The position numbers were made by a program, and so were the translations under genes. From Protoeuglena noctilucae (lineage: Eukaryota): a stretch of 64,000 nucleotides of DNA. Below are positions 10,874 through 62,435 of this stretch, piece by piece. The notes beneath the pieces are model-generated. The model was not told where the DNA came from, ran no database searches, and saw only the letters and a program-made list of their open reading frames with translations. Each line of letters starts with the position of its first letter. The stretch's first letter is position 1. Where the stretch lies: positions 806,001 to 870,000 of the forward strand of contig OY253684.1 in NCBI GenBank assembly GCA_958009085.1, written 5' to 3'.

Positions 10874-13800
10874 ATGCTGAGGAGTGTCGGCAAGAGGGCC
10901 TTGAAGGTGATCACACAGGGGCATTGACGGCCGCATCGCCCGATAACTGCTCAGCGTCCCTGTGGGCGCGCGTGGAGAGCGCTGGTCGCCACTTTCGTGC
11001 CTGGGCCCCACGCAGGTCGGCCTCTGGATTGGGGGCCTGGCCGCGCTCGGCCACGTCGTGGAGCGCTACCAGTTCGCGAAGACGACCAAGCTGCCCAAGG
11101 CGTTTGTACTTGACGTCGACTTTGACGACCACCAGGGTGCGCGCCGCCCGCTGCGCCATCGCGGTGCGAGAGAAACTAGTGCTCTCTACTTGCGACGCCA
11201 CTCGGTGTCCCCGTGCGCGCAGTGGTCGAGACGGCTCCGAGCAAGGTGGAGCAGATTTTCAGGCCGAGCAAGAAGTACGAGCTGCGCAGTCTGCTGGAGC
11301 ACATCGCCGCGGCGGGGAACGACAATCGCGTCAAGCTGCTGGAAGGTGCAGGCGGGGGAAACCCGGGTAGACTAGGCGGGCGTCTCTCGTTTTACGCTTT
11401 GCAAACACCAGCGTTTCTCCTCGACTCCGCAGTGCGCCTGGGCCTCGGTGCGCCGAAGGTGTCCGGCCTCGCGACCATCCAGGACATCCGCGACGCGATC
11501 CACGCGTTCCGGGACGCAGCGGGCGACCGGGGAGCCCTGGCCGTCGCCCATGCACAGAGCTACGGGGGCGCGGCGAACGGCACGCCCGCCTATCTGATCG
11601 CCTCCGCCTGTGACAAGGTGCGTGGCGATTAGCACATACATGCTGGGCCACCGCATCACCCAGCACACGCACCCACCCCCATACCCACCACCCACACTCG
11701 ACACCCCACCCCACTCTCCCTCGTTCTCCACCCCCCCAGGTGTGGGTGATGCCCACGGGCCGCCTGAGTCTCCTGGGCGTGGCATCCCAGCAGGTCTTTG
11801 CGCGTGGGTTGCTGGACAAGTACCACATTGAGTTCGTATGTGCCAAGCGGCGCGAATACAAGAACGCCGCCAACATGCTCACGGAGGCGAGGGGGCGTGT
11901 GTGGTGGTCGTTGCATTGTGGTTGTAGCAGCGTGCTTGTCAGTTGTAGCTGACCATGCGTGCTCACGTGCTCACGGAGGCGATGGGGCATGCGTTCGTGA
12001 CTTATGTGTTAGTTGGACTGTACACCCGCACCCACACCCACACTGCCACCCACACCCACACCCACACCCACACCCACACCCACACTCTCACCCACACCCA
12101 CACTGCCACCCACACCCACACCCACACCCACACTCTCACCCACACCCCACACTGCCACCCAAACCCACACACACAGCACCCCCACCCCCCATTCCCGCAG
12201 ACGGGCTTCACGAAGCAGCATCGCGAGGCGACTGAGCACATCCTGCAAGAGGCTTACACGCTCATCTGCGAGGCACTCCAGTCGGACCGATCCCTGCGCC
12301 AGCGGCTGGTGTGGTGGGCGATGCGGGAGGCGCCGCTGAGCGCCGCGGACGCTCTGCGCTACGGCTTTGTGAGCGAGGTGGTGGCGGCTTCGGATGTTAC
12401 AAGGAAGCTGGTGGACGCGGCGCATGACGGCATGCGGGGGTGGGTCAAGCGGGAGGCGAAGAAGGACGAGGGGGAGCTTGCGCAGGGGTGGGAGAAGGTG
12501 AGGGGCTTGGGAGGGTGCATGGGGGTGGGAGTGCGCATGCTTGGTGGGAGATGGTGGGAGGTGGGACGAGGCGATGGGGGTAAGTGATGGCAAACAGTGG
12601 AATCACGCGTGGGTACTCATAATTACAATAACGTTATAAAGCAGTTGGTATAGCAGTTCGCATCAACCTCCCCTTTCCCATCTCCCCACTCAGGTGGTGG
12701 ACGCGGTGGTGGATGCCTCAACCATCGGTCGCGTGTCGCTGGGTCGCTACATCAAGGCGTGCATGGCTAAGGAGGCACAGGCGGACAGGCGCTTTGAGAG
12801 AGAAGAGGCCTGGGGGCAGCTGCGGAAGGCGGTGGGCGAGGCGTGGGACGAGGTGTGGGGTGCGAGGGAGGGTGGGGAGGAGGGGGCGGAGGGGTTGAGC
12901 GGGATCAAGAGGGAGAAGGGGAAGCTGCCTTTGGGGGAGAGCGAGGAGGCGGGCAAGGGGGCGGAGAGCGGTGGGGAGGGGGCCAAGGCGGCGCCCACGC
13001 ACACGACGGTGGCGGTGGTGACAGGTGAACGGTTGGGGTTGGTGGGGTGATGTGGGAGTGGTTGGAGTGGTGATGGGTGCATGGTGGGTGTGGGAGTGGA
13101 AGGCGTGGTGACAGGTGCGGGGTGGGGGTGGTGGGGTGATGTGGGAGTAGTGGGAGTGGTGACAGGTGCGGGAGTGGGAATGGTGGTGCGTGTGGTGGGG
13201 TGCCGTGCGAGTGGTGGCGGTGGTGACGGGTGCGTTTGGTGTATGGGTGGTGTGAGAGGTGGAATGGAAGGTGCGTAGCTGAGAGTGGTGTTGACTAAGA
13301 CGATGTCTTAGCCGCGAACACCGTCTCTCCTCCCCCGCAGCTGCCGGCCCCATCTACGACGGTCGGAGGAGCGAGACGCAGCGGCAGGGGGCGGGTGTGT
13401 ACGCGGCAGACTTCGTCAAGACGCTGGTGAGCGTGGGTGGATGGGGGTATGTGCACGATGGTGGCTTTGTATGTCAGGGCGCTAGTTAGCGCAGGTGGGG
13501 GTACGTGCATGACACACCACCCCTCTCATTCCCGTTCTGAGATATCATCAATGCCTCAAATATCATCAACAACTCGTGCCTCACCCCCGCAGAGCGATGT
13601 TGCCAAGGACGAGTCGGTGTCGGTGGTGCTGCTGCGGGTGAACAGCCCCGGGGGGTCGGCCGCCGCGTCGGAGCTCATCGCCAGGAAGATACAGGAGATG
13701 AAGTGAGCAATGGGGATGGGGGATGTTAGTTACTGAGCCAACCCACTTCCCTCTTCTCGTCTTCCCTACCACGCCGCCACCCCACGGCGCTACCACAAGC

Positions 13801-15226: not shown

Positions 15227-15332
15227 GGGGTGGGTGTGGCGTGTGGGGTTGGGGCTGGCGTGAGGAGTGGGGCTGGCGTGAGGGGCGCATGGGCGTTGGC
15301 CGCCCTCACACCCCCCCACGTCCCCTGACCGA

Positions 15333-15337
15333 TGTAA
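15333..15337 (+). promoter_or_regulatory. Candidate TGTAA polyadenylation signal of sppA
   Basis: TGTAA about 107 nt after the stop codon. UGUAA is the known chlorophyte poly(A) signal, but a 5-mer match is weak evidence. Confidence 0.35.
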
Positions 15338-18151: not shown

Positions 18152-21781
<3,630 letters not shown>

Positions 21782-28206: not shown

Positions 28207-30627
28207 TCACACCCCCATCTCCCTGAAGAACTTGACCGTATGCTTGAGCGCCTCCACGAACGCATCGACCTCAGCATGCGTGTTGTAGAGATAGGCCGAT
28301 GCGCGCGCGGACGCGTTGACCCCCAAGTACGCGTGCAAGGGCTGCGTGCAGTGGTGTCCCGACCGCACCGCGACGCCCGCCTGGTCGAGAATGGTAGAGA
28401 CGTCGGTGGCGTGGAGGCCGTCGACGTTGAAGGAGCATAACGACGCGCGGGGCATGCCCGGGGGAGGGCCGTAGATTGTCACCCCGTCCACCCGGCTCAG
28501 CTCCTGGTACAGGTAACCGCCGATCTCCTCCTGAGGGGATAGTAAGGGAAGATAATATGAATGAGCAGAATTGATGATGGGAGAAGCAAGTCAGTCAGTC
28601 AGTCGTTGTCAGTCGTTTCAACCACGCTCTCCGCCGATGCACCCTCTCCATGCCCATACCCGTGCTATGTCAGACAACCCCACCACTCCCACCACCCACC
28701 ACTCACCTCGTACTTGTGCACCTTGTCCATGCCAATGACCGTCAGGTAGTCGATTTCATCAAGCAACACCACCCCCACCCACTCACCTCGTACTTGTGCA
28801 CCTTGTCCATGCCGATGCCCGTCAGGTAGTCGCACGCGGCGCCCATCCCGATCGCCTCGGCGATGGCGGGCGTGCCGGCCTCAAACCGCCCCGGCGGCTC
28901 CGCGAACGTCGAGTGGTCCAGGAACACATCCTGGATCATCTCGCCGCCCCCCATCCACGGCGGCATGTCTGCCAGAATTTCCCCACGGCCCCACAGGAAC
29001 CCCGCCCCGGTGGGGCCGCACATCTTGTGGGAAGACGCCACGATCCAGTCCGCACCCAGGCTCTGCGGGGATGAGAGAGAGAGAGGAGGTAACAGTGATG
29101 GTGAGAGTGACGCGCATGATGTGCCCTCATAAGGCGTATGGTGGGGTAAAGAGGTGCGTACTGTATCTCTCACCGACACGTCGACCGGCAGGTGCGGCAC
29201 AGCCTGGCAGGCGTCCAGCAGCACCCGCGCCCCGACCCGGTTTGCGATGTCGACGATGTCGTGGACCGGGTTGCGGCACCCAAGCATGTTGGACACGTAC
29301 ACCAGAGCCACAAGCTTCGTCTGCGGTTGCGGAATAGAAATCGGGTCGAGTGTTTAGACGCGGTTTGTGCCTGAGGGTGGCTACAAGGGGCTGCGTGGGT
29401 GGATGCGGCGACGGCCGACAAGTCATAGCCACGAGCGTCACATTCGTCCGTTCCCTCACCCTCGGCGTCACCAACTCCCGCAAATGGTCCAAGTCGAGGG
29501 TCTGGGTGTCGCGCGTGAGCCGGCAGAACTGCGACGAAGCAAGGGGGACAGCAACGAACCGATCAGCGCTCGTCAAACGCACAGCAGCATTTTTAGTACC
29601 CTAAATATGCCATTCGGCCCGCAAGTGCGCATCTGCGGCCCCGCTTCGGCCGCAGCGGGGCTCGCCTTGAGGACGGCGCGCTTGCGCTGGGCCAGGAGCT
29701 GCCAGGGGACCAGGTTGGAGTGGTGCTCCATCACGCTCAGCACAATCTCATCCCCCTCGCCGATGTACTGCCCGCCCCAGCTGTTGGCGACCAGGTTGAT
29801 GGCCTCGGTCGCGCCCCGCGTGAACACCACCTCGCGATCCGACCGCGCGTGGATGAACTGCACATCCGAATCGAGGATAAGAAAGATAATGATATAAATG
29901 AATTGTCGAAATCAATTGCAGCCTCTAAGAAGCCCCGTTCCCGGCGCACCTTGGCGACCTTGGCGCGGCTCTCCTCGTAAGCGGCCGTGGCGAGCGCGGA
30001 GAGGTGGTGCACGCCGCGGTGCACGTTAGAGTTCATCTCCGTGTAATACTTGTCCATCGCGCTCAGCACCTGCGGGATGCGCGCGGCCGAGGGCGCGGTA
30101 ATGCCACCAAAACGCGCGCTCGGCCACCCACCGTCCCCGCGCGCCGCACGCGCGCCCGCGATGCCGACCGCGCGCACCTGGGTGGGCTTCTGCGACGTCG
30201 CTGCGTTGTCGAGGTACACCAGCCGCGTCCCGTTGACGCGACGGTCGAGGATGGGGAAGTCGGCCCGGACCGCCTCACCCAGCGCGACATCGGACGACGC
30301 GGAGGCCGCTGCCTGCAATCGGAAGCAGTTGGACGGATGCTCGCATTGACTATCGCCATCAGGCGCCTGCATCTGCGCCGCATCGCCACGGCGCGGGGCT
30401 CCCGAGGCCCCGACGCACACGTGTCCCATCCCTGGAATAGACGGCACACGGAGAGGGCGCGCCGCGAGTCACGCGCGGAGAGCGCGTGTTACGAAGCACT
30501 GGAAACGATAGTCGGAGCCCCCGCCCACCTGGCAAGCCACGCCGGCGCGATGAGCCTTTCGTGGCGCAACGCTGCACGTCGCCCCCGCCGCCGGGGCCGC
30601 GAGCCCCAGGGCCCCTGCCGCAGCCAT
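28207..30627 (-). CDS. sufS: Plastid cysteine desulfurase SufS/NFS2
   Basis: [73 protein letters not shown] (PLP lysine), [24 protein letters not shown] (catalytic Cys). Confidence 0.97.
28701..28832 (-). repeat. 52-nt direct duplication of an sufS exon end + donor into the intron
   Basis: 28781-28832 versus 28701-28752: 2 mismatches, 80-nt offset. Confidence 0.95.
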
Positions 30628-44600: not shown

Positions 44601-47600
44601 CCAGCTCGTGCTCACGCGACACCCAGCCATCGTGGCAGCGGCCGCCAGGCTGCTCTATGTGGTGCTGGAGCACAATGCCCAAGCGCTGTCGCGGTGAGAT
44701 GGGTGGGGTGTTTGTGTTGGGTGATAGAGGGGGGTGATGGAGGGTGGTAATGCCTGGGGGTAGTGGGGGGGTGGCGGAGGTTGGGAGGTAGTGTGGGGTG
44801 GTAAGTGAAATGGATGTGGTGAAGATTGCAACTGTTCGCTGTGTACTATCACTTATTCTATGCATATCTATCACGTACTGCCAATATCACATATATTGGC
44901 ACACACACACACACACACACCCACCCACACACACACACACACACAGTCCATCTCAATTACTATCTATCTCAATCACTATCTATCTCAATCACTATCTATC
45001 TCAATTACAACCCTCTCCTTCCCAACTCAGCCTGTACGCGACCGGCTTCTTTTACTTCGCTGTCACGCACCTGGGCTCGGACGTCGCCGATCTGGCGCGC
45101 GTGCTGCGGCTGTCGCACCTGAGTCAGCGATTTAGGGGGGAGGCCGACGCGCGACAGGGGCCCGCCACGCCCCTGGGGCAGAGGTCGTACCTGGGGCACG
45201 TGCTGCCGGAGGCGAGTGGCGTTAGTATCTACTGATTGTTCGGTATGGATCGCGATGTTGTTATTTATCGCTAAATGCATGTGGCTGGGATGGGTGGGCT
45301 GTCTGTGCCCCCGTGGCAAAGGTCGCATCTCCGGCTCGGTTGCCCATATATCTATGTTTGTCATCAACATAATATACATAATATACACGATAAATACTCC
45401 CCCGCCCCCCTCCCCCCCCAGTCTTTGATCTATGTGCTTGAGCACGGCACCCCCGATGCCTTCTCGGCCGCTCTGTGTGGGGAGCACGACACGCCAGAGC
45501 TGTTGTGGACGGAGCGCATGAGGAGGGGGACGCTGCAGCCGCAGGTGACGGTGATGTATTTGAATATATCGATTGGCAGTAATTATAAGCAGATGAGTGA
45601 TGATGTGTGAGGATATAGCTGGCGCAGACGCGTGCGGATGCCATGGTGGGGTTTGGTATGTATACATGCAATCCCACATTCAAACGACGTTCAATCAACT
45701 CTCAATCGACTCCCACACCACCCCACCCCCCAGGTGTCCCAGCATCTGGGTCTCTTCCCCCTGGTCATCAAGCAGCGGCATCAAGCAACGTACGACTACA
45801 CCCCACTCCCGCCCATCGCATACCCGGACCTGCAGGCGAGTTGGGAGGGGAGGGAACGGGGGAATGAGTAAGTATTATATTATATTAGTTAATATAGTGG
45901 TAATAATACTTGGGATCGTATGCTGGGCAGGGGTAGTGTATGGGGGTAAATAATTCAGTAAGTATTGTAGCGATTACTGCAGTGGTAATTATACTGGGGA
46001 TCGTATGCTGGGCAGTGCGTCGGATGTGTGGGATCCGGTGCCACCGCTGCTCCTCTCGCCCCTCACACACACATCAACACCCCCATTCACCCACCCATCC
46101 GCACCCATATCACTCCTACCCCTCACAATATGAACACCCCCAATCACTTACACCGAACCCCTTGTCTAACTCACAGGGCGAGATCTGGTGCCACCGCTAC
46201 CACCTCCGCAACCTCTGCGACGAGCGCCGGTTCCCCGATTGGCCCGTGGTGGACCACTTGCGTGTGCTGCAGTCACTGATGGGGCTGTGGAAGCAGGAAC
46301 TGGCGAAAGAAGGGCCCGGGATGGGGGAGGAGGAGGCGATGCGAGTGATGGGAATAACGAGGGGGGAGGGGGGGGAGTGGCCGGGGGCCGAGGCCGTCAG
46401 GCGGGCATACCGCGCCAAAGCGAGGGAGTGCCATCCCGATCGGTGAGATGGGGTTATGGGGTGGGTGTTGATGGGTTAGATGAGTATGCGAAATTGAGTG
46501 GATGGGGAGCGCGTACAGTTGCGGTCACACACCCACCATTGCCCACCCCAGCCTCTCTCACATTCCCTCTCCCGCACTCCCCCACTCTCCCACCCCCCCC
46601 TCCCCTCCACCCCCGCAGCAACCCCGGCGAGGACGCCGCCGATCGATTCGCCGCCCTGCAGCGAGCCTACGAGTACCTGCAGGGATCTTTCAATGCCAGA
46701 AACGGGGCGGGCAATGCGGGCACTGCCCCCGCCTATGGGCCCGACCCCTCTCGTCTGCTGCTGGTGCTGAGGGCGCAATGCGTGCTGTACCGGCGATACC
46801 CCAAACAGCTGTCGGAATTCAAATACGCGGGGTATCCCATGCTGCTCAGGGCCGTGCAGGTGAGGGGTGGTGGATGGGGAGATGATGTGCGCTTGCTGCT
46901 GTCGTTGCTGTGACCACCGCTGCTTTCGATACCCCCACTGCCACCCATGCCACCACCCCCACCCCCACCCCCACTCCCACCCATATCACCACCCCTACTG
47001 CCACCTTTACCGCCACCCCCACTGCCACCCATACCACCACCCCTAACATCACCCCCCCCACCCCTACACAGGACCACATGCGCACTTCCGCCCCCCTCCA
47101 CCCCACCAGCCCCGGCCACCCCCTCGTGCAATCCTCCGCCGAGCTGTGCTGGCTCACATGCGCCGCGTCTCCCAGGTCAGGACTCGAACTCGTGAGGTGC
47201 GGGGGGGTGCCGTTACTGGCGGAGGTTCTGGCGAGGGCGATACCCGCGTTGAGTGGGGAGGGGGAGGAGGCGAGGGGGGCGGCGGAGTTGGCTGCAAATG
47301 CACTGCGGACGTTTGCGGGACTGGGGGTGTACGATGCGGGGAGAGCGGAGGTGCTTAAACGGTGGGGGGTGGTGTGCGACATTGTGCGGGGCTGTGGGGA
47401 GGGCAAACACCCTGCAGTTGCGGACGCGGCTGTGGCTTGCGTGGGGGCGCTGGCGGGCAGCCCTGGGTTGCAAGCGGCGTTGGTGGCGGCGGGGGCGTCG
47501 TGGGTGCTGATACCGTTATTGTTTGCGTATGATGCGGGGGCGGGTGGGGATGGTGCGGACGTGGCTGCTGCTGAGAGGATGCTCAGCTTGCGTGCGAGGG

Positions 47601-50600
47601 GGGTGCAGGGTGCGGGGGCGGTGGGAGATGGGGAGGGGGAGGGGGAGGTGGATGGGGCGGAGAACCCCGCGCTGGTGCTGGGGGCGCTGGGGGCGCAGAG
47701 GGCGAGCATGCAGGTGAGAGTGATGGGAGTGGGTGGGGTGGGATGTGTGTGGGTGTGTGTGTGGGGTGGGTGGGTGAGAGTGAGCATGCAGGTGAGGGGG
47801 AGAGGGAGGTGGGGTGTGTGTGGGGTGTGGATGCGTGCACAGTGGGTTTAAGCACCTCTCATTATACCCCTCTCCTCTCACCCCACCATACCCACTCATC
47901 CCATCACTCACCATGCCCTCACCATCCCCTCACCGCCCCTCTCCCCCCCAGGCCGCCCGCAACGTGCGTGCCATGCTCGCCGCACGCGCACTGGCGAGAC
48001 TGGCGGGGCTGATGGGGCGGGGAGGGCGATTTGGCACATCCCCGCTACCGCCACTGCAAGATGCGCTAAAAGCGCTGCTCACCCCTTACCTGGCGGGGCG
48101 ACTGGCGGAGATCGACCCGAGGGGTTTTCTGGCAGACGCGTGCCAGAGTTGCGAGCGGCCGCATCTGATCTGGGACGCGGAGATGAGGGAGGGGGTGGGG
48201 GAGGTGTGCGGGGGAGCGATGGAGGTGAGATGGGGGGGTGAGGTGGAGATGGGGTGGTTGTGATTGAGTGGTGTTATAGATGGGGTGATGGTGATATACG
48301 GGGAGTGGTTGAGGGGTAATGAGGGTGACCTTTGCTTCTTAACCCATCCCCACACTCCCACTCACCGCATAACTCACCCCCCACTCACCCCAACCATCAT
48401 AACCCCCTTCCCCCCCCCCGCAGTCCCTCAACCTGCAAGAGCCCCCCTTCCTCCCACCCCTCGCATCCCAGCCCCCCTCCACCCCCCTCCCGCCCCCCGC
48501 CCTCGCGCACCTCACCGCCACCCTCGCCCCCGCCCTCTCTTTCCACCACTCATCCCTGAAGCACGAATTGGTGATCGCGGGTGTGTACGTTCGCGTGTAT
48601 AACGCGCAGCCTCAACAGCCCCTCTTCGACGCGGCCACGTTTCTGGCAGAGACTCTGGCACAGGCGGCGTTTCTGGCGAGGGCGTACCTGCAGGCGCGGG
48701 GGCTGTGGGTGCCGGCGCTGCTGCCGCGATTGCCGGCGGAGGGGGCGACGAGGGCGGGGCAGGGGGGGATGGGGGGGTACATGCCAAGCGTTGCGCCGGG
48801 GATGGGCGGGAGGGGCGGGGGTGCGGGTGCGGGTGGGGTTGCAGCGAGGCAATCTGTCAAGAGCGAGGGTGCGGGTCCGCTGGAGCAGGGAGGGGAGGCG
48901 GCGGCTGCGGGTGGCGCGGCGGCGAGTCGCAGAGAGGCTGCGTGGAGTGCGGGGGATGAGGGGCGGCTGCTGGCGTGCTTGCAAGCGGCGGCAAATGTGG
49001 TGGGTGGCAGCCCGGGCTTGGCTGTGCTGGCGGCGGGGAGAGCGACGGTGGCGGCGCTGCTGTGGGCGATGCAGGCGGCGGTGGCGGCGGGGGTGGGGGG
49101 TTGTGAGGGCAACGGGTCGGTGGCAAGTGGCGGTATGGGGCATGCATTGAGGGACGGGGGGGCTATCGGCACTGCCACTGCCACTGCTTCTGCCAATGCG
49201 GGTTCGCCCTTTGTCAGCAGCACCACGAATGTAGCGGCGGGGGCGACATCGGTGGGCGGTGCATCGGCGGTGGCAGTGACGGCGTTTGACGCCTCTCTGT
49301 GCCTGGCATCTCTGCGACTGATGGCCCAATTGGCTGGCCACCCCAAAGGAGCAGAGTCGCTTGGTTGCGAGGCGGTGGTGTGCCGGCTGATGTGGCTGGT
49401 GCACCGACCGCCCACCCCCGCTTGCCGCGATCACTGCTTGCGGGTGCTGGGGGCGCTGGCGGGGCGGCCGGCCGTGGCCTTTTGCGCGGCAGAGCAGGGC
49501 GGGGCGCTCATGCTGCTGTCCGCAATCATGCCGGGATCGGAAGCCGCTTACACGCTGGGTGGAGGGGGGGCGGGTGTGGGTGGCAGTGGGGGTGCGGGAG
49601 AGGGGCAGAGTGCGGGGGTCACTTCAACAGCGGCCACTACTGCTGCGGGCGCTAGGAGTGACGCAGCAGCTGCGATGACGAGGGAAGCACCGACAGCAAG
49701 CGTAACAGGCAATGACAGCGCAAGCGAGGACCGGCTGCGTGTGGCGGCTGCTTCTCTGCTGGGTAGACTGGCGCAGAGCGGGGCCCACGGCTCCCGCATC
49801 GTCGCTGTGCTCTGCGCTGTGCTGCCTGCGGGCATTGTCGATGCGCTGAGGGACGGGCCGGGGGAGGCGGCGGTGGGGGTGCTCGAGGCCGTGTCGGGTG
49901 AGCAGTTGATGTGTGGTTATATCGATATCATATGTGTTGGGTTAGGGTTTGGGCAGGGGTTGTAATTGGTTGTGACTGTTGAAGATAGTGTTGCTGTGGT
50001 GAGTGGGTGGGTGGGGGAGGCGGCAGTGGGGCGCTCGTGGCCGTGTCGGGTGAGCAGTGGTTGCAACGATGATACCATTTATATTACTGTTATTCCGTAT
50101 GGTATGGATGTTGTCAATACGGTACGAATCGATCATTATATGTCGTAGCGACTGTAATAATAACAGATGCAATGATAAATAACAACAATACTACTATCAC
50201 TGTATGTGCTTGCTAATCAACTCCCACTCATCCTTCCCCCCTTTCAGAGACCCCCGAGCGCGTGTGGAGCCGCGCCATGCTGAGCCGCGCCTCGTCCGCC
50301 GTTTCAAATCTCTGCGCATCGGCACGCGCCCAGCAGTGGCGGGCGATGGCGGCGGGGGGAGGGGCGGAGTGGGCGCCGGGGGCGGGGGGTGCGGTGGAGT
50401 TTGAGGAGCTGAGGGGGGAGCTGCAAGTGGGGGGGGTGTACGGTGAGTGAGTGGGGGGAGCTGCAAGTGGGGGGGGGTGTATGGTGAGTGAAGGGGTTGG
50501 GGGTTGCACATGTGGGGGGGGTTGTACAGTAAGTTAGTGTTATGTATATATTTATTCTGTCGTCTGTAGTAGATATGTATATTTGTATTATTTGAATTCC

Positions 50601-52240
50601 TCCCTTCCACCCCCACCCCCACCCCCGCAGTCCGCCTCTTCCTGAAGGACCCCCGCCACCCCCTCCGCGACCCCCGGGGCTTCCTGCAAGCGCTGCTGGA
50701 CGCGCACCTGGCATCGGCAGCAAAGGTGGTACCGATCTCGAATTCAAACAGCGTGGGGAGAGGAGCAGCGGGGATGGGGGGGATGGGGCCTGGGGCGGCA
50801 GCCGAGCGTTGCGTGACGCTGGGGGCAGCAGCCGTGGCGCTCATGCAGGTGAGGGGAGAAAAAGGGATTTGAATGTTGTGCGAGTTTAAATGGCAGTTAC
50901 ATGTAAGTGGGGCTGAGGGGTGAGGTTAGTGGAGGGGTGCGTGGGTGGGTAGCGCGGGTGGCGTGGAGCGCCCGTGTCACTCCAAACACTCTAGCGACCC
51001 ATAACATGGCCCAATTGATGACCCTTATCATGTCACATCATCCCTCAATCACCCTCACCCCTCTCTCCCCCTCTCCCTCACCCCCAGGTCCACCCCCTGC
51101 TTGCCGACGCGTCTGCCTCCACCGCCGCCCCCTCTCACCTCCTCTCTGCGCTGCTCTCCGCCTGCCACCTGCTCGCGAGGGGCCCGCACGCCCCGCTGCC
51201 ACCCGACGTGAAGAGGCAGGACGTGGTGGATGTGGCGGGGAGCGTGTTGCGCATCACACACCTCATGGCAGGTGAGGGGGTGGGGGAGTGGGTGAATGTG
51301 GGGGGGAATGGAGGGGTGGGATTGAGCAAAAGAGGGGGTGAGGTGAGGTGAAAGATACTTCACCCATTCTTCATTGCACACCACTCTTTGTCCCTCACGC
51401 AACGCACCACTCCCCCTCACTGATCGCCCACACCCCACACCATCACACCATCACACCATCACACCCCAGAGGGGTGTCCAACACCCCTCTCTACCCCACT
51501 CCCCCCCCGCAGTGTCCCTCGCCTTTGCCGAAGCATCTCCGACCACCACCCCCCCCGCCCTGCACGCCCTCGCACCCGCGCTGTCGTGGGAACGCGGCGC
51601 GCGCGTTCTGGCGCTTGAAACCATCAAGCGGTGCCTGAGGGCCGACAGCCGCGCGAGGGACGCGGCGGTGGGGCAGGCTCTGGCGATGAAACTGCCAGAG
51701 AGGCTGCTGCGAGCGCTGGACTGGCGGGGGGGTGCGGGTGCGGGTGCGGGTGCGGGTGCGGGTGCGGGTGCGGGTGCGGGTGCGGGTGCGGGTGCGGGTG
51801 CGGGGGCGGGTGCGGATGAGGCGCGGAGCAGCGATGGGGGAGTGGAGAGGGTGCTGTGGTGAGTGATGGGGAGATGGGATAGGATGGGGTGGTTAGCAGG
51901 GGTGGTAGTGGTGATGGGCAGCGATGAGAGACGGGCATGCTGCGCGTTACTCCCACCAATTCTGATAACTGTATCTCATATCCCTCATCTACCCCCCTCC
52001 CCTTCCCTCCCTCCCAGCATCGACATCCTGCGGCTGCTGTCGCTCCCCGGCGCCCACCACACCGCCGTCCAGTCCATCCTCGATGCCTCTGACGTTTGGG
52101 GTGCATACCGGGACCAGCGTCACGAGATGTTCTTGCCGGGCGCCGAGGACCGGCAGTCGGGGGTGGTGGGGCTGCTGACGGGGGGGGAGGTGGCGACGTT
52201 TGCGCTGCCGGCCAAGGAGGGGGAGGGGGCTGCGCAGTGA
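35603..52240 (+). CDS. DNAJC13: RME-8 / GRV2 / DNAJC13 endosomal J-domain protein (more than 25 introns)
   Basis: RFVVTKHSWKGRYQRIFC, WNHEEFSVHYPSL, GEHDTPELLW, EIWCHRYHLRNLCD, J domain VRRAYRAKARECHPDR|NP, FKYAGYPML, ELVIAGVYVRVYN, ELQVGGVY|VRLFLKDP, VWGAYRDQRHEMFLP. Confidence 0.96.
40064..40165 (+). repeat. (GGTGTG)n array at the 5' end of an RME-8 intron
   Basis: GGGTGT-type repeats start at the donor at 40064. This is the reverse complement of the CACACC arrays found at intron 3' ends. Confidence 0.85.
44900..44945 (+). repeat. (CA)n microsatellite in RME-8 intron
   Basis: Interrupted CA dinucleotide run. Confidence 0.9.
51730..51812 (+). repeat. Coding (GGTGCG)n repeat encoding a Gly-Ala run near an RME-8 exon 3' end
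   Basis: About 13 GGTGCG units translated as GAGAGA... Confidence 0.9.
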
Positions 52241-52741
52241 AGGGGGGAGATAAGGAGTCGAGTAAATGAGAATTGGATATGGGAGACGGTTAAAATGAAA
52301 GGATTGGGATGGGATGGGGATTCGGTGGGGGTAGGGGTTGGATGCAAGGCGGAGAGTGTAAAGATGAGACATGAGCATGCGCGTACCTGTGCTGAAGAAG
52401 ATGTTATGTTTTTGAAGAGTGGGAGTGTTTTCTTGTAGCCAACACCCATTGTCTCAAATGCGGTCTGAGCTAGCAGTCGAGCGCCGCTTCCTCTGCCATT
52501 CATCGCCTGCCGTTGAACGCATCCGCTGGCGGGAACGTCACGGCTGGCACAGCGATGCTGCCACTGCTTCACACACGTCTCATTCACGACAGCAGGTTCC
52601 CCAGCAGGCACAATTGTTTGCATGCACCCCATCCCAATCGAAGTAATGACTCTCGGCAGCTGCCATCACTTCACACACCTCCGTCCCCAATCAAAGCAAG
52701 GAGTCTCTGCAGATGTCATTACTTTGACACGTACATCCCAT

Positions 52742-54473
52742 TCACGATAGCAGGTTCCTCAGCAGCCTCTCCGCTTCCTCGAACTCTAGCGATTTCCGCT
52801 CTGTTTCCGACGCATGCGAAACGTAAGACTGCAGGAAGCGGATGCCCTCCTGGGGGGAGGGAGGGCACGGGGGTAAGGGATAAGAAGGGATAAGAACGAA
52901 AGGACGAGTAGGTAGTGAGAAGGAGTTACAACTTCGTTTTGTAAATGGGCGAGTGATGGTGCAGCTGGGCAAGCGAGCTCGCAAGCTGCGTCCCATGCAT
53001 CATACCCCGCATTCTCACCTGCGTGCTGCACCCTTCATCTCCATCACCATGCATATCCCATTCACCTGCGTGCTGCACCCCTCGTCCTGCACCATGCAAA
53101 TCCCCACGTCCCTGACCACATCCATCGATGGAAAGGCGTACGCCAAAACGCGACACGCCTCCAAAGCCTCACGGTACCGGCCAGACGCTGCAGGGGGTGG
53201 GGAGTGATGAGATGAGAATGAGAACGGTTGATGACATGGCCAGGCGCACACCCTACCTCACACCCACAGCCACCACCCCCCTCCTCGCATGCACCCCCTC
53301 CCTCGCATGCACAACCCCCCATCTCTCCACCCACACACCCACCCTCACCCATGGCTACCACCCGCATGGCATCCACAACGCGATACACGAGTTCCTCTCC
53401 CCCCATGGCCACCGCATTCCTGGGGGCGTCTGCCGCAAAGAACCAGGGATACCCCACGTCGAGCACCGTCTCCAGTCCGGGGGCTTCGTCGCCCATGACG
53501 CGGGTTCGAATCATGACGTGGTGGGGCGCGCCGGAAAAGGACACGGCCTCGGAGGGCACGCAGAGGCGCGCGAGGGCGTCCAGGGCGATGGCGGCGCACA
53601 GCATGTGGGACGCGGCGCCGGTTTCTGGCAAGCGGTGCAGCAGCCAGTGATCCAGGACCTGCAAGGGAGGCGACAGTGGGCGGTGGAGCTGGGGAGGAGC
53701 TGGGGGTGGGCAGTGGTGGGTTGGGTGCGTGCGCATGCGGGGAGGTGGGAGCAGTATATAGTGGGGGAGAGAGACACATAAGAGACAAAATAGAACCATC
53801 GACATTCGCCAACCCCCCACCCCACCTGCAGCTCGTCCACCTCCCTCTTGATGTCTACCCTCTGCATGACGGCGTTGTTGACCGCCTCCACCACCTCGTG
53901 ACCCATGCCGCCCTTAGCCTTGGCGGCCATCTCGGGCGCCCGGGACACCAGCCTGCGAATACGATAGAAATGGTTAAGAATTTGGCACACGCACACATGG
54001 CCGCGCGCCGGCCGGCACTGCGTCACGCACAGCATAGCACGTCCCGCACCGCTTGCAGATGCCGCGCACGTCCTCCAGCAGCTCGCCCACGTCCTCCGTG
54101 CTGCCCACCACCTGCCTCCCGGCCAAGAGAATCGCCTCCAGCACATCTACGGAGCCAGATTGCACCATCTCGCGCACGCGCGCAGCGTCCCCGTCGTCGT
54201 TCGCGTTGCCGAACGCGGGCAGCGATTTGAGGACCTCCGAGGCCCCGCCGTCTTCCTGCGAGTCAGCTACGTGCGCTTCGTGGCTTCGACCGGCCACAGA
54301 CAGGCGGCGAGGCCACGCTCGCGAGCAGAACGCACCGGGATGGCCCTGGCTCGGCGCAGAGGGGGGCGATGCGCGGTCCACCGCGCGCGCATCATCGACG
54401 CAGTGTGTGCGATCGGCCTGCGCTGCACCCCGTGCGCCCATCGGCACACGGGCGAATGGATGGGCGCGGACAT
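52742..54473 (-). CDS. SirB1-like (transglutaminase-like core + TPR) protein, probably organellar
   Basis: VVEAVNNAVM..VLDHWLLHR..LCAAIALDALARLCVPSEAVSFSGAPHHVMIR..VLDV, then helical GRYREALEACRVL..VVRDVGICM..EGIRFLQSYV. Clean spliced frame; family assignment is by eye. Confidence 0.6.
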
Positions 54474-54807
54474 GGTGCGGCTGTGGATGTGCCTGCCCGG
54501 AGCGCCCTGGCGTCACGCGCGATGTGCTGCTCGCAGTCGCAAACTTCGAGAGAGTCTGCTATTAAGCCGCAATAACTCTCCGGCGCGCGAAACTGCTGGG
54601 AGCCCAGGGGAACCCAAGTCAGACGGGAAACGCGAGCGAAAGCGCCGGCCTTCGAGCCGATGCCGCATCTGTGCGTGACCCTCTGTCCTGATTGTTCACG
54701 CTGCCTGTCCTTTGCGGCGAGAAGAGGACCTCGTTGGGGGCGCGGCACGGCGTACGAGCTCCCTCTGCTTTCCCACGCGGGGCTGAGGTGGATCCCGAGA
54801 AGCGAAG

Positions 54808-57800
54808 ATGCTCGACATCAACGCATTCCGCGTAGGTGACGCACCCGCTCTTTGCCGGGCATTTCCAGCCCTCCGCGCAGAGCCTTGCGTGTCTGCGACG
54901 GACTCTGGCCTTGCAGCGAGCTCTGATGGGGGGCTAGGACCGGGGACTGCGTGCGGCACGCGCCGGATCTCGACACGGCGGGCGCGGCATGCATGGCTCA
55001 ACCGACCACGGCGGCCGTGGCCCGGGGCTTGCGCTTGCGGGCCCGTGCGCACCGCGAGGCGCGCCTTGCGCATCTTCCTGTCGCGTGACAGCTCTCCCCC
55101 CGCCGCGTCGGTCCCCCGCGCCTCCAAACAGGCCACTGCAGGGGCGCGCAGCGTCGTCCACGTGCCCCGCCGCGACCGTGCGCGCCCCAGCGCCGCGCGG
55201 CCGGCCCTGCGCTCCGCGTCTTCAATCGCTGCGCTTCCGCTCCTCGCGCTCCGCAGACAAGGGCGGCGACCCCGAGAAGATCCGCGAGTCGCAGCGCCGG
55301 CGCTTCGCGGACGTGGGGATCGTGGACCGCGTGATTGATCTCGACGAGCAGTGGCGGCAGGCGACGTACGATATGGGTACGTACTACAGCGCGAGGGCAA
55401 AGCGGCTGCCGTCGCATGCCGGCCGCGCTGCTTTGTGTTTTTTCCAGAGTGGGCGCGAATGTGCTCTCCGCGCCCCCGCTGCGCGCAGAGAGCGCCAAGC
55501 GCGAGGCGAATCTGATTTCGAAGGAGGTGGGTCGCAAGAAGAAGGCGGGCGAGGACACGGAGGCGGAGCAGGAGCAAGTGCGGAAGCTCAAGGTCACGAT
55601 CGCCGAGCTGGAGGACAAGGCCAAGGTGAGGAGATGGGATGAGATGGGATGTGTGGCAGGCTGTGAATGTTATGGTTACTGAGCTGCAGGACACGGCCAA
55701 GGTGTGATGAGATGAGATGGGATGGGATGGCATGCACTCAACACGCCGTCGAGTTTGCGACATCCCGACTGCAGTACCGCTGCACCCGCACCCACCTCAC
55801 TGGCACCCGCACCCCCACCCTCCGTCTCACCTGTACCCCCCCTCACCCCACCCCACCCACCCCCACCTCACCCCCACCTCACCACTACCCCCCACCACCA
55901 CCACCACCTCAGTCCCTGGAGTCTGCCCGCAATGACCTGGCCGCCCAGGTGGGCAACTACGTGCACGAGTCGGTGCCCGTGTCCCAGGACGAGGCGATGA
56001 ACGCCGTGGTGCGCGAGTGGGGGCAGCCGCGGCAGGACGCCAGGCACAACCACGTCGACCTCGTGCAGATGCTCGGCATTGCGAATTTGGACCAGGGAGT
56101 GGTGAGTGGGAGCGCGGGTGTGTGCTCGCAGTGCAGATGCTAGCGATTGCCAACGCCTTCCTAGCGCCCTTCCCAACCTCACCCCACCACCGCACCCCCC
56201 CCCCCCCCCCCCCCCCCCTCCCCAACAGACGGTGGCGGGCGGCCGCGGCTACTACCTGATGAACGAGGGGTGCCTGCTCAACCAGGCGCTGGTCAGCTAC
56301 GCCATGGCGTTCCTCTTCAAGCGCGGCTACACCCCCGTGCAGACGCCCTTCTTCATGCGCAAGACCATCATGGCGCAGTGCGCGCAGCTGAGCCAGGTGA
56401 AGGGGGTGGGGGGAGTAAATGAGTAAGTGAGGGAGTGAGTCAGGGAGTGAGTCAGGGAGTGAGGGAGTGAATGAGCATTATGGCGCAGTGCGCGCAGCTG
56501 AGCCAGGTGAAGAGAGAGGGGTGGATGGGGAGGGGAGGGGTTGGTAGTGATGGAAGCGAGGATCAATGTTTCTGACACACCGTTTCTCCTCTCACCCTCA
56601 CTTTGGCATCGCCCGTCCCAAGTAACTCACCGCAGTTCGACGGCAAGCTCTACCACGCGACCACTCTCACTCACCTCATTCTCACATCCCCATGTCTCAT
56701 CTTATTTTACCACACCCCCCACCCCAGTTCGACGAGGAGCTCTACCACGTGAGCGGCGAGGGCGAGGACAAGTACCTGATCGCCACCTCCGAGCAGACCC
56801 TCTGCGCCCTGCACCTGAACCAGTGGGTGGAGCCGCGCGAGCTGCCCATCAAGCTGGCGGGGTACTCGACGTGCTTTAGGAAGGAGGCGGGGTCGCACGG
56901 CAGGGACACGCTGGGGATATTCCGGGTGCACCAATTCGAGAAGGCGAGGGGGCGATTGGGATGATAAGAGATGGTTGGGAATGGTGTGTGACTGGGTGAC
57001 TGGTTGTGTGGTTCATTGGGTGAGTGGTGTGTGACTGGTGAGAGGTGAGGGGCAGGATGGGGATAGTCGAAGTGCACCAGTTTGAGAAGGCGAGGGATGA
57101 TGGGGGGGGGGATGAGTGAGTGATTGTGGGGTGTGTGGTTTGTGATGCGATGCGGTGCGTCAAGTGACGTGCGATGAGCATCGAACGGCCCCCATGCAAT
57201 CTCAACCTGCCTCGCTTCCCCTCACACCCTACCACTCTCACCCCCACCCCCACCCCCCTTTCACCCAACGCAGGTCGAGCAGTTCGTGGTGGCCCACCCC
57301 TCACAGTCATCCCCACAACCACTCACCCAATCACTCTCACTCTCATTCTCACTCTCATTCTCACTCTCACTCTCACTCTCACTCTCACCCACCCATCACC
57401 CCCACCCCCTTACTCAAACACAGGTCGAGCAGTTCGTGGTGGCCCACCCCGACGAGTCGTGGCCGCTGATGGAGGAGATGATCGGCAACGCGGAGGCCTT
57501 CTACCAGTCCCTTGGATTGCCCTATCGAGTCGTCAACATCGTGTCGGGGGAGCTCAACAATGCGGCCGCCAAGAAGTACGACCTCGAGGCGTGGTTCCCG
57601 GGGGGCAAGGCGTACCGGTGAGAATTGAGATGGGGTGTTTGTTAGTATAACTATTACAAGTAGTAATAGTAGCATTACTTGTGTGTACCAGTACGACCTG
57701 GAGGCGTGGTTCCCGAGGGGGAAGGCGTACCGGTGAGAGTGGTAGTTGATATGAGTAGATGTGATGGTTAGTGTCTGTAGTGGAGAGCGATGGTGGTGTT

Positions 57801-58406
57801 TGCGAGTTGTTGTCACTCCCTCTCCCATCACATCGCAGTGAGCTCGTGTCTTGCTCCAACTGCACCGACTACCAGAGCCGCAACCTGGAGGTCCGCCTCC
57901 GCACCCCAAAGGCCCCCGGGGCAGAGCAGCGGAAGGACTACGTCCACATGCTCAACGCCACCATGACGGCCACGGAACGCACGCTCTGCTGCCTGCTTGA
58001 GAACTACCAGACGGAGGTGAGAGAGAGGAGGGGTTAGCGATAGCAGCATAGTACACTAGGTGTGATGGTGGTGGTGATAGTAACACTGACTGTGCTGCCT
58101 GCTTGAGAACTACCAGACGGAGGTGAGGGGGTTGGTAGTACAAGGGGATAGCAACAGTTCGGCTGTTCTCACATAATGTGATGGCCCCTGCGCTATTAAA
58201 GACCCATTGCAATGCCTTATCTTAGACTTACAATTCACCTGACCCCTCCCCTTACCGCCCAGAACGGCGTGGTGGTCCCCGAGCCCCTGCGCCCCTACAC
58301 GTGCGGGGTCGAGTTCATCCCTTTCCGCAAGGAGTTCGACAAGAACGGCAAGCTGGTGGACAGGGCCGCGCCCAAGCCTGACGCGTCCATGGGGTCGGTG
58401 AACTGA
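54808..58406 (+). CDS. SARS1: Seryl-tRNA synthetase, cytosolic
   Basis: [108 protein letters not shown]. Confidence 0.98.
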
Positions 58407-60491: not shown

Positions 60492-62435
60492 ATGGCTGCG
60501 CCTCTGGTGGCAGCACCGCGGCCGCTTTGCAGTGCACTCTGTCGTCGAAATGTCCGCACGCGGGGAATGGGCGGGATGCCTCCGGGTGAGGCCAGCGGAG
60601 TCGATAAGCGTGCATGCCCAGCGACCCTGCTCTCCCCGCGCTGGTGGTTGTTTCCGATGAATCTCGCCGCGACTGCCGCGCGCAGGGTTCCCCGGCATGG
60701 GAGGGATGGGCGGGATGGGCGGCATGGGCGGCGCGGTGCCTGACGTCGCATGGTGACGGCAGGGGCGCTCTCCGCCGCGCTTGCCGCGACTTGCGCTTCG
60801 TCGGTTGGCTCAGATGCTTTATACGTGATATGTGCGCTACATGACATGAGATTCGCTGCGGGGGCGCCCGCAGGGACCCCGAGGGCCTGCTGCAGCGACG
60901 CGAGGCGAACCTCATCGACCGCAACCTGATGAAGCGGAGGATGCAGCAGGTGCGCGGCGCGTCGACTGCAATCATTCAACATCTCTACGTCGCGAGCCTC
61001 CGCTCGCTTTCCGGCGCCCGCCTCGCGCGCGGCCGCCCCGTCACGCCCACACCAGAAGATTGGCGCGCGCGCCCGCGCCATCCCCCGCCCCGCCTCCCCC
61101 GCAGGACGCCCAGTACCGCACGGAAGTGGAGGCGCAGGCGGTCAAGCAGTACCGCGCGGTGACGCAGCGTCGCCAGTCTCGGGTGCCTCCCGAAGGCGAC
61201 TCGTTCCAACTCATCGACTATCTGCTCCAAACGCACCCGGAGGACATGGAGTGGGAGGTGGCGAGGTGCAGGCCGTCCCTGGGTGACTCCTTCTTCGCGG
61301 CACTGGAGCGCGAGATTGGAACGTGCAAGGTGCGGGACGCGCACGCGCAGACGGGGCCCGTCTGCTGCAGAGAGTGGGTGGTACGTAGCACCCTGCCTAT
61401 GCGCACCCGCCCCAATCCGGTCTGTCTTGGCCAAGAACCACTGACTGCTGTGCAACATGCGAGCCCAGCGCTGCCTGCGAGCACGCGCAGTGACAGACAA
61501 TAACCCTTGCTCACAATCACCGTTGCGTCGTGGCTTGTGTCGCAGTTCGGGGTGCAGGCGGAGGAGCAGAAGGATCGTCTGGCGGAGTTGGAGGGCCTCA
61601 GGGATTTCCTGAAGATCGCCGTGGCTGCGTTGGACGAGCGCGTCGCGTCGCTGGCGTCCCCGGTCGACCGGATGAAGAAGCTGCTGACTGCCAAGGCGAG
61701 CGGGGGGGATGGGCAGGGTAGAGAGAGTGAGCGGACAGTGCAAAGAAAGCGAGAGGGCCATCCTCGCCACACACCACATCGCATCGCATACATCGCATCA
61801 CACCACACGCCCTCCCTGCCCCCCCTCGCAGGACAAGAAGGCGATGATTGCGCAGATGGCAGGCGACAACGAGATCGACGACGACCTGATTGCTCTGCTG
61901 GACCAGAACATCGAGGCCGCACGCAAGGCGGGGCAGGAGGAGGCGGCGGACTTCATGAAGCGCGTGAGGGACGCGGCCAATCGCTTCGTCATTGCCACGC
62001 CCAGCGCGGAGGAAATCCGGGAGAGGTTCCAGAGGGGGCTGGAGGTGAGGGGAGTGTCCGTAGAGATCCGGGAGAGGTTCCAGAGGGGGCTGGAGGTGAG
62101 GGGGCTTGGGGCTTGGGTGCTGGATTGGGCATGGCAGTCAGCAGTCGGGGCTGGAGGCGCAGGGCTGAGGGCGCTTGTGTGGGAATGCCTGCACTTGTAC
62201 TCACAACCTCGGCGGTATCGTGCCATCTCTTCGCTTACTCTCGCTTACTCTCGCTCACTCTCACTCTCTCTCGCCCTGGCGGTCGCAGGAGGCAGAGAAA
62301 GAGGACCAGGAGAGCGACAAGGGGGCGGCAGTGGGGGCAGTGGGGTCATCGGAGGGGGCCAAGGGGAGGAAGGGGCCGGTGGTGCTGGGGGCGGGGACGC
62401 CGCCCCCCGAAGAGCCCAAGAAACTCATCTTGTGA
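60492..62435 (+). CDS. Conserved uncharacterised plastid-targeted helical protein of the green lineage
   Basis: Transit peptide, DPEGLL, LIDYLLQTHPEDMEWEVARCRPSLGDSFFAALEREIG, DRLAELEGL, MKKLLTAK|DKKAMIAQMAGDNEIDDDLIALLDQNIEAARKAGQEEAADFMKRVR. Confidence 0.8.

Follow-up and report, generated by a model that had tools for sequence, protein, structure and literature searches.

Copies of splice junctions recur inside the adjacent introns in a 64-kb window of the Protoeuglena noctilucae genome

Genes and gene models of the window

We analysed a stretch of 64,000 nucleotides of the green alga Protoeuglena noctilucae (assembly GCA_958009085.1, contig OY253684.1, positions 806,001 to 870,000 of the forward strand), referred to below as the window and numbered from its first letter. 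In this window, segments spanning an exon-intron junction reappear in the same orientation inside the adjacent intron. We call these copies splice-junction echoes, donor or acceptor echoes according to the junction that is copied. The G+C content ranges from 57 to 71% across the window, intron-rich genes are dense, and Tandem Repeats Finder (TRF) returned 97 rows of tandem repeats. Translations of single exons matched the Pfam families Peptidase_S49, class-I MetRS (tRNA-synt_1g), Aminotran_5, alpha/beta hydrolase, LRR, and class-II SerRS. The long gene in the middle of the window aligns with DNAJC13/RME-8 of Auxenochlorella, the only match found for an RME-8 exon having 41% identity, and the best named relatives of the SerRS exon, in various green algae and plants, are about 83% identical. 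Long Ala/Gly-rich low-complexity inserts lie between the conserved blocks of the RME-8 exons 42821-44158 and 48424-49896, where the homologue aligns in patches by tblastn. The AT-richest part of the window is 44000-46000 (GC 0.567), and its introns hold a (CA)23 run at 44900-44945, a 16-nt unit repeated 3.5 times at 44950-45005, and a complex intron-internal repeat at 45896-45930 (offset +85).

Near-identical DNA and RNA are present in marine metagenome and metatranscriptome runs. A single base difference was found over 20 kb between the window and the contigs from these runs (43835 A>G, in both X5 and X7), so the environmental population is almost identical to the assembled strain. RNA contig joints from two runs of one sample confirm 11 introns, which are GT-AG with one GC-AG intron and include seven echo-bearing donors and two echo-bearing acceptors; these joints are the best-supported 15 of 64, and RNA contigs drop rare forms. 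Gene models were built with a small hidden Markov model (HMM) gene finder trained on the RNA-confirmed introns and on long exons, which gave 20 gene models with 75 introns. Nine of the 11 RNA-confirmed introns were recovered exactly, and the two missed belong to the 5' region of the SerRS gene. A tblastn comparison with the Auxenochlorella DNAJC13 homologue supports several RME-8 junctions and places one acceptor at 41055/41056 rather than at 41108. Junction positions accordingly rest on RNA contig joints, tblastn homology, and, for the remainder, the HMM.

The penalty set on introns strongly affected the models: under weak penalties echoes became micro-exons and 4 of the 11 confirmed introns were recovered, against 9 of 11 under heavy penalties. 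In the region 55626-58262, the micro-exons made from echoes under ordinary penalties were 55690-55701, 56489-56506, 56636-56656, 57274-57288, and 58117-58122. GC-AG introns are frequent among the models, with 12 of 75 predicted donors (11887, 19642, 20026, 32075, 36586, 36965, 40728, 44161, 45212, 45836, 56944, and 61696), all of the GCGAG type; one of these introns (56944-57423) is RNA-confirmed, and a dubious extra GC call at 53953-54001 is left out of the count.

Frequency of splice-junction echoes

Splice-junction echoes are real and far above chance in the window. A donor window of 38 nt (30 nt of exon and 8 nt of intron) was compared with intron interiors, a match being a score of at least 14, and counts were compared by Fisher tests. 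A same-strand match in the own intron was obtained for 18 of the 75 donor windows, compared with 1 of 900 comparisons with other introns (p=2e-20) and 2 of 71 for an exon-interior window (-68 to -30) against the same own introns (p=2e-4). On the acceptor side, 6 of 75 windows matched their own intron and 0 of 900 matched other introns (p=2e-7), and the corresponding exon-interior window gave 0 of 75. After complexity filtering, 13 of 75 donors and 5 of 75 acceptors retained a match, compared with 12 of 542 intron-internal windows (5/282 searched forwards and 7/260 backwards) and 0 of 418 windows of unannotated DNA. The copies are confined to the own intron: no donor window was copied to the intron across its exon (0/60), and no acceptor window to the next intron (0/60). 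Inverted (reverse-complement) copies of the junction in its own intron were likewise absent at a score of at least 14 (0/75 donors, 0/75 acceptors).

The same picture emerged when the entire window was searched by an unbiased diagonal scan (offsets 10-500, scoring +1/-2, score at least 14), which returned 266 segments, 189 of them non-tandem and 120 once overlaps were collapsed. Among the high-complexity repeats (dinucleotide entropy at least 2.8), 12 span a junction and have a downstream intron copy, and five are intron copies with the junction-spanning copy downstream; the remainder comprise 10 intron-to-intron and 6 exon-to-exon repeats. Counted in bases, coverage by local direct repeats amounts to 25.5% in introns, against 6.6% in exons and 1.9% in unannotated DNA, and the intron figure falls to 1.5% when 100-nt blocks are shuffled. 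The echoes are therefore one part of an intron-specific local-duplication regime that covers a quarter of intron bases.

An original prediction, made from the sequence before this analysis, had listed 22 echo loci (16 donor-side and 6 acceptor-side), and a same-orientation repeat was found at, or within a few nucleotides of, each of the positions it gave. It had also named other-intron and shuffled comparisons as checks, and both came out in favour of the echoes. Three of its cases are weaker than it described: the repeats are present, but the one at 32390 carries no splice site, the one at 46031 matches 16/17 without retaining the AG, and the one at 20694 has only a 16-nt exact core.

Echoes in independent DNA and RNA

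We considered whether the echoes could reflect an assembly or haplotype-collapse error, or chance similarity of low-complexity sequence. The introns are indeed low-complexity and repeat-rich, and short-read contigs do break at the longest exact echoes (an X5 contig, for example, starts at 58098). Nevertheless, such an artefact is largely refuted and, in our estimate, scarcely credible. Independent metagenome DNA contigs, themselves assembled, span both copies with 0 differences at four loci: 49861/50014 (contig extent 48835-50434), 40898/41042 (40172-41275), 46032/46182 (44976-46600), and 55605/55681 (51825-55851). Both copies thus lie together on independently obtained DNA, as the original prediction would have it, and the echoes are no assembly artefact. 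Chance similarity is further opposed by the other-intron and block-shuffle controls given above, and by the nature of the echoes, which consist of high-complexity coding sequence up to 64 nt long.

In RNA, the outer site is used in the contig joints at all echo-bearing junctions covered, namely 7 of 7 donors and 2 of 2 acceptors among the best-supported 15 of 64 joints. Homology by tblastn supports the outer sites at RME-8 37771, 42478, 41056, and 44514 as well. The echoes are silent in the dominant transcripts, in which the outermost donor and the outermost acceptor are used. Use of the decoys, if any, would mostly shift the reading frame; in a hand-made list, 3 of 16 offsets are multiples of three, which indicates no frame preference.

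Relatives of the SerRS gene were also sought in the metagenome. A scan with the SerRS exon returned 80 loci, with a best amino-acid identity of 83%, and eight were inspected. Coding sequence continues past the downstream (3') junction in 8 of 8 and past the upstream junction in 7 of 8, the exception being locus L010, so these loci provide no comparison of orthologous introns.

Anatomy of the echoes

In donor echoes the exon part is 9-46 nt long and the intron part 3-20 nt; the intron part of acceptor echoes is 7-14 nt. In length the duplicated segments range from 15 to 64 nt. The copies keep the orientation of the original and stay in the same intron, at 40-205 nt from the junction. All introns with an echo have normal outer sites of their own. 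The junction lies near the outer end of the repeat, the intron part making up less than half in 16 of 17 pairs of the unbiased scan that were tabulated manually.

The splice site itself is truly copied, beyond mere similarity, as all three echo-bearing GC donors have GC echoes and the odd donors GTGAAG, GTGACGCATGG, and GTGAGCAGT are reproduced in theirs. Introns with GC and GT donors are echoed at about equal rates (3/12 and 15/63, hand count). In a hand count of donor pairs scored with a position weight matrix (PWM), the echo donor is higher in six, lower in five, and equal in five. The introns are thus filled with decoy splice sites, as had been proposed: 41 internal donor-like sites score at least 6 in the 75 introns, 95% of them within the first half. 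Two SerRS introns bear both a donor and an acceptor echo and consequently contain a full inner 'mini-intron' (56507-56635 and 57090-57273) with its own G-rich start and C-rich end.

Individual loci

The loci are described below in order of position; identities are given as matching over compared nucleotides, and all lie on the + strand except the two noted. In the sppA-like S49-peptidase gene, the GC-AG intron 11887-12200 bears a donor echo whose source, 11876-11896 (11 nt of exon plus GCGAGGGGGC), is copied at 11968-11988 (20/21, offset 92). A minisatellite-like array spans 13008-13232 at the intron 13025-13340 of the same gene. Here the exon end GGTGGTGACAG, followed by GTG, has copies at 13105 (13/13) and about 13156, the farthest copy of this exon end lies at 13213-13232 (19/20, offset 205), and TRF reports 13037-13195.

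The MetRS gene carries a donor echo at about 20384, where the source 20350-20403 (35 nt of exon plus GTGACGCATGG...) has copies at 20459-20484 (23/26), 20528-20581 (49/54), and 20622-20642. On its acceptor side, the start of the KMGKS-coding exon, 20772-20787, is copied at 20695-20710 as a 16/16 core within about 45 nt of roughly 75% match. The donor echo of the sufS-like class-V aminotransferase gene lies on the - strand, in the intron 28531-28786; its source, 28769-28832 (46 nt of exon plus 18 nt of intron), is copied at 28689-28752 (59/64, offset 80). In the alpha/beta hydrolase gene (intron 32443-32655), an exon-interior copy leads from 32390-32406 to 32471-32487, about 38 nt in all with mismatches.

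The RME-8/DNAJC13-like gene holds the largest series. In its GC-AG intron 36965-37196, the source 36955-36970 is copied at 37052-37067 (16/16, offset 97) with the GC kept; the match can be followed from 36937 over about 34 nt, the middle of which has diverged. The intron 37771-38312, whose donor is supported by tblastn, has its source at 37760-37785 and its copy at 37837-37862 (22/26, offset 77), and the similarity runs on into the spacer. Two low-complexity echoes add to those of the original prediction. One is a donor echo at the GGGGGGCAG/GTGAGGGGTG junction of intron 38531-38855 (span 38522-38587, 19/19, offset 47), and the other is an acceptor echo of the acceptor 39312/39313, in which CCCCCCAG followed by CCCC... 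is copied at 39186-39203 (17/18). The intron 40064-40381 has a source of 27 nt of exon plus 13 nt of intron (40037-40076) and a copy at 40190-40229 (38/40, offset 153), with a spacer that is mostly (GGGTGT)n. At the acceptor 41055/41056, placed by homology, the real segment 41042-41098 is echoed at 40898-40954 (53/57, offset 144).

Farther along the same gene, the intron 42478-42820 has its source at 42455-42480 and its copy at 42538-42563 (25/26, offset 83), and here the echo donor GTGAGGGG outscores the real donor GTGGGTTG. The acceptor 44513/44514 is echoed at 44380-44425 from the real segment 44505-44550 (9 nt of intron plus 37 nt of exon; 40/46, offset 125). A weak acceptor-side echo copies the exon start 46182-46198 at 46032-46048 (16/17), the AG not being retained. 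In the intron 47714-47951, GAGCATGCAG followed by GTGAG is copied at 47782-47796 (span 47704-47796, 15/15, offset 78). The intron 49898-50247 is RNA-confirmed with its outer donor used; its source 49876-49906 is copied at 50028-50058 (29/31, offset 152), and a second match leads from 49860-49878 to 50013-50031. The spacer between this donor and its echo holds a telomere-like G-run, GGGTTAGGGTTTGGGCAGGGG, at about 49939-49959, a potential four-stranded DNA motif. Three head-to-tail units of 41 nt occupy 50413-50539 at the intron 50443-50630, which is RNA-confirmed with the first donor used, and the first unit spans the exon-intron boundary.

A gene without a Pfam match, labelled 'SirB1-like' in the original prediction, carries a donor echo on the - strand (intron 52850-53065), with the source 53062-53080 copied at 53015-53033 (19/19, offset 47). 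The SerRS introns that follow are all RNA-confirmed. The intron 55626-55912 has its source at 55605-55628 and its copy at 55681-55704 (22/24, offset 76), with similarity extending about 26 nt into the intron. In the intron 56397-56727, the donor source 56366-56402 is copied at 56476-56512 (36/37, offset 110), and the acceptor segment 56720-56749 (8 nt of intron plus 22 nt of exon) is echoed at 56628-56657 (26/30, offset 92). The GC-AG intron 56944-57423 likewise bears both kinds: a donor echo from 56902-56950 to 57048-57096 (40/49, offset 146) with the GC kept, and an acceptor echo at 57267-57300 of the real segment 57417-57450 (7 nt of intron plus 27 nt of exon; 33/34, offset 150). The source 57575-57623 of the intron 57618-57838 (43 nt of exon plus GTGAGA) is copied at 57690-57738 (46/49, offset 115), and that of the intron 58017-58262, 57987-58021 (30 nt of exon plus GTGAG), at 58093-58127 (35/35, offset 106). 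Their spacers, of 66 and 71 nt respectively, are complex and show no likeness to the sequence after the echo.

Another gene without a Pfam match contains an exact repeat, in which the 38-nt segment 62015-62052, an exon end plus GTGAGGGG, recurs at 62066-62103 (38/38, offset 51) behind a spacer of 13 nt that is unique. With 17 codons and no stop, the offset is in frame, so that the frame would be preserved with either donor; the second would add 17 residues repeating the preceding peptide, and the HMM took the longer exon. This repeat is possibly an alternative 5' splice site or an exon extension.

Decay of echoes and length of introns

The identity between copy and original spans 82 to 100%, which points to duplication events of different ages and bears out a recurrent process; the identities look like a birth-and-decay series. 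Mismatches between echo and exon fall on codon position 1 in 7 of 136, on position 2 in 11 of 136, and on position 3 in 19 of 140. Mismatches at all positions are expected when the echo drifts freely and the exon changes mainly synonymously, and the pattern counts against coding constraint, steady gene conversion, and strong selection on the echoes, which decay like neutral sequence.

These data bear on the idea that selection for splicing keeps the echoes, as back-up or decoy sites recruiting U1/U2 factors, for nested or consecutive splicing, or for regulated unproductive isoforms. The strength of the echo sites, equal to that of the real ones, and the two complete inner mini-introns of the SerRS gene would suit such a role, and a single-gene precedent exists in the donor duplication of Lipomyces, which leads to consecutive splicing in the passages of that report cited here (PMC7138796). 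We consider it highly doubtful, as the echoes diverge at all codon positions, with positions 1 and 2 at about half the rate of position 3, and as their identities resemble birth and decay. Neither does the absence of a frame preference among the offsets favour it, nor do the best-supported 15 of 64 RNA joints, in which only outer sites are joined.

Echo-bearing introns (21 of 75) are longer than the rest, with a median of 314 nt versus 172.5 nt (p=6e-7), which fits intron growth. When the full offset or offsets are subtracted, their median becomes 176 nt, which cannot be distinguished from that of echo-free introns (p=0.97); when the copies only are subtracted, the median is 256 nt and still differs (p=1e-4). 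This match favours events that add spacer and copy together. Of the three consequences that the original prediction had drawn for introns, growth is consistent with the data, no case of gain is seen, all echoes sitting in introns with normal outer sites, and sliding has one in-frame candidate (62015-62103).

The introns themselves are strongly polar, with a median GC skew of +0.45 in the first half, which is G-rich, and of -0.62 in the second half, which is C-rich; the polarity is clear in 41 of 75. In the RNA folds predicted for the introns, the 5' half pairs with the 3' half along the whole length, and the median share of base pairs that link the halves is 71%. The z score of the minimum free energy is -3.6 for the intron 56397-56727 and -2.5 for 56944-57423, and it lies below -2 in 34 of 75 introns relative to whole-intron shuffles. 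Such predicted end-to-end folding could bring the splice sites together. Hairpin shielding was considered as the cause of outer-site choice and rejected: the real donor region takes part in the closing pairs, at a median of 1 nt from the donor, and the folds therefore give no picture of exposed real sites and hidden decoys.

Spacers and the origin of the copies

The copies are usually set apart from the original rather than being perfect tandem repeats, as had been stated in advance. In 7 of 13 donor cases the spacer has no likeness to the sequence that follows the echo, as judged by gapped alignment, shared 7-mers, and alignment with lenient gaps, and these seven include the youngest echoes (35/35, 46/49, and 36/37). 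Simple tandem duplication thus explains a minority of cases. A tandem repeat within the spacer, largely microsatellite, was found in 6 of 18, and none in 12 of 18. A BLAST search of 13 spacers against the whole window on both strands gave low-complexity matches only and no other copy.

The copies are direct, lie in the same intron, are anchored at the junction, and often come without a duplicated spacer, which points to short-range re-copying at the border between exon and intron flank. We give a probability of about 0.5 to the reading that such re-copying, in the course of faulty replication or break repair at the low-complexity intron flanks, makes the copies. Replication or break repair would fail in the flanks, where G predominates just behind the donor and C just ahead of the acceptor. 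Beside the splice site, a DNA end that has stalled or broken would then extend on a neighbouring template, or the junction unit would duplicate, and the exon end and splice site would thereby be written again inside the same intron. Survivors would be only those events that leave the outer sites in use, each event lengthening the intron, probably by the whole offset of spacer plus copy. The copies could stem from a template switch, from a short duplication of the junction together with filler, or from slippage and a later change of the spacer.

Several observations weigh against the re-copying reading. No inverted copies occur (0/75), although templated insertions of the repair type usually yield some. 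The spacer is duplicated after the echo in 3 of 13 cases (37760, 42455, and 55605), and plain head-to-tail arrays exist at three to four loci (50413-50539, 13008-13232, and 20350-20642), so that more than one route may operate. The reading also does not account for the complex 66-121-nt spacers behind near-perfect echoes. The border contexts show no consistent microhomology, apart from one 8-nt stutter at 11960-11975. Junction anchoring, a central claim of the original prediction, holds against exon-interior windows and against high-complexity intron-internal windows, but when no filter is applied donor windows exceed intron-internal windows only about 2-fold (18/75 versus 62/542, p=0.005). 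The hydrolase copy at 32390 is an exception to anchoring, its source stopping about 16 nt short of the donor with no splice site included. The HMM misplaces at least three junctions (MetRS donor 20384, RME-8 acceptor 41055, put at 41108, and donor 62045). The argument from whole-offset length weakens if the chance of an echo climbs steeply with intron length (P=0.003 to 0.2 by weighting). Finally, the analysis covers one 64-kb window and eight genes.

The spacers also bear on ordinary short tandem duplication, by slippage or unequal exchange across junctions, in which exon-internal events are selected away and the unstable G/T- or C/A-rich portion of the unit subsequently changes by scrambling or expansion, so that the complex core of exon end and splice site alone can still be recognised and a spacer separates the copies. 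We regard this account as unlikely. It is favoured by several observations: the head-to-tail arrays with a boundary-spanning first unit (50413-50539, 13008-13232, and MetRS 20350-20642), the short spacers (0, 13, 28, and 28 nt) of several perfect echoes, the six largely microsatellite spacers, the wealth of tandem repeats in the introns (97 TRF rows, 25.5% coverage), and the equality with echo-free introns once the offset is subtracted. Against it, near-perfect echoes (35/35, 46/49, and 36/37) stand behind complex 66-73-nt spacers unlike anything in the window, which leaves too little time for the spacer to have been scrambled. Moreover, 12 of 18 spacers hold no tandem repeat, and the position of the junction is not uniform, being close to an end of the repeat in 16 of 17 pairs.

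Spacers unrelated to their surroundings could also mean that foreign or filler DNA, or a mobile element, was inserted beside the splice site at a staggered break, the fill-in duplicating the exon end and splice site like a long target-site duplication. The copy-unique spacer-copy layout with its sharp borders, and the growth of introns by the whole offset, would agree with this. We judge it improbable nonetheless: the spacers have no shared family, terminal repeats, tails, or other copy in the 64 kb, the duplicated length (15-64 nt) is unlike transposase footprints, some loci are free of a spacer (50413), and multi-copy arrays do not fit single insertions. A mobile-element family was likewise rejected as a candidate, no further copies of the spacers being present in the 64-kb window.

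The re-copying reading admits a stronger and more tentative form, against which we would still lay the odds, in which splice junctions are mutational hotspots. Transcription, splicing, or replication would be linked to a process that stalls exactly where the exon meets its structured G- or C-rich flank and repeatedly re-writes the junction into the intron, which would constitute an undescribed major route of intron lengthening. Candidates for the cause of stalling would be RNA:DNA hybrids or folded G-rich DNA, and the spliceosome would meet perfect decoys while always taking the outermost pair of sites. In sum, the original prediction is partly supported, in that the process is recurrent, junction-anchored, decoy-making, and linked to longer introns.

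Significance

If the pattern holds genome-wide, echoes would represent a concrete, countable mutational route of intron growth, echo-bearing introns being about 140 nt longer than others. By a rough estimate, based on the 24 echoes that can be recognised at 150 junctions up to a neutral divergence of about 20%, the event rate per junction would be comparable to the single-base point-mutation rate. The echoes also form a natural library of decoys, with up to 49 nt of identical exon context and a site of equal strength placed 50-150 nt inside the intron. With such a library, the choice between splice sites that sequence alone does not separate, an old question, can be put to a direct test. For the annotation of this genome they are a hazard, since gene finders can be misled by echoes into micro-exons.

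Comparison with known systems

Junction duplications are known as disease alleles, and single-locus analogues of the echoes are already known, as in human F7. No description of the many-gene pattern was found: full-text literature searches, covering main texts without supplementary files, returned no systematic account of junction echoes across many genes, in line with the original prediction, whose author knew of no description of this as a genome-wide feature.

Introner-type transposons insert with target-site duplications. In the window there is no multi-copy spacer family, and the duplicated length is 15-64 nt rather than fixed and short. Direct repeats of 4-30 bp between the two borders of an intron are read as insertion scars in the cited passages of Rogers and Bendich 2025 (PMC11782384). 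As with such border repeats and introners, the echoes are short direct repeats associated with splice junctions. Unlike the border repeats as described in those passages, which pair the 5' with the 3' intron border, the second copy here lies inside the same intron, reaches 64 nt, and includes the splice site.

In the AGGT model, an intron is gained by tandem genomic duplication of exon sequence with splice signals, the repeats abutting both splice sites. The new intron then consists wholly of duplicated exon sequence, the upstream exon end recurring at its 3' end and the downstream exon start at its 5' end. Intron gain by tandem duplication is reportedly the subject of Hellsten et al. 2011 and of a potato RdRp case. 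The echoes resemble this model in that duplicated exon sequence with splice signals becomes intron sequence and the mRNA is unchanged; they differ in that the introns here pre-exist with normal outer sites, the copy lies mid-intron, and the rest is unrelated. Duplication of a whole intron's length of this type was not seen, as the echoes stand at 40-205 nt from the junction and the intron sequence behind them is unrelated (for example 58093-58127 in the intron ending at 58262).

Polymerase-theta repair, including synthesis-dependent microhomology-mediated end joining (SD-MMEJ), and template switching in replication produce templated insertions and small duplications, with direct (loop-out) and inverted (snap-back) copies. 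As in these pathways, a short stretch here is copied from a template within about 200 nt, sometimes with filler. The sources lie 40-205 nt away, and copies were absent from neighbouring introns (0 of 60) and nearly so from other introns (1 of 900). In contrast to these pathways, all copies here are direct and one border lies about 3-20 nt from the splice site, and the absence of inverted copies fits textbook polymerase-theta repair poorly. To our knowledge, neither pathway is anchored at splice junctions.

The [D] stwintrons of Lipomyces are proposed, in the cited passages of Ag et al. 2020 (PMC7138796), to have arisen by donor duplication inside an intron of one gene. There as here, a functional donor is duplicated within an existing intron, which offers alternative or consecutive splicing options. 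As described in those passages, the Lipomyces case concerns a single position in one yeast gene with abutting donors, whereas here the copy also takes in 9-46 nt of exon.

The closest parallel is intron 7 of human F7, which contains a 37-bp minisatellite (variable number tandem repeat, VNTR) that begins with a unit lying across the boundary of exon 7 and intron 7, as set out in the cited passages of Borensztajn et al. 2006 (PMC1557585). The pseudo-donors of that intron are silent and the most upstream donor is chosen, according to the same passages (PMC1557585). To the extent of that description, the two systems share the repetition of the exon end and donor in the intron, the functional-looking but silent donors, and the use of the most upstream donor. 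In the window, boundary-spanning repeats were found at 18 of 75 donors, the upstream donor was used in the 7 of 7 covered by RNA contig joints, and head-to-tail units occur only at 50413-50539, 13008-13232, and 20350-20642. Unlike F7 as described there, with its one locus and strict head-to-tail arrangement, echoes here affect about a quarter of the donor junctions in eight neighbouring genes of a green alga, most copies are set off by unrelated spacers, and acceptor junctions are echoed too.

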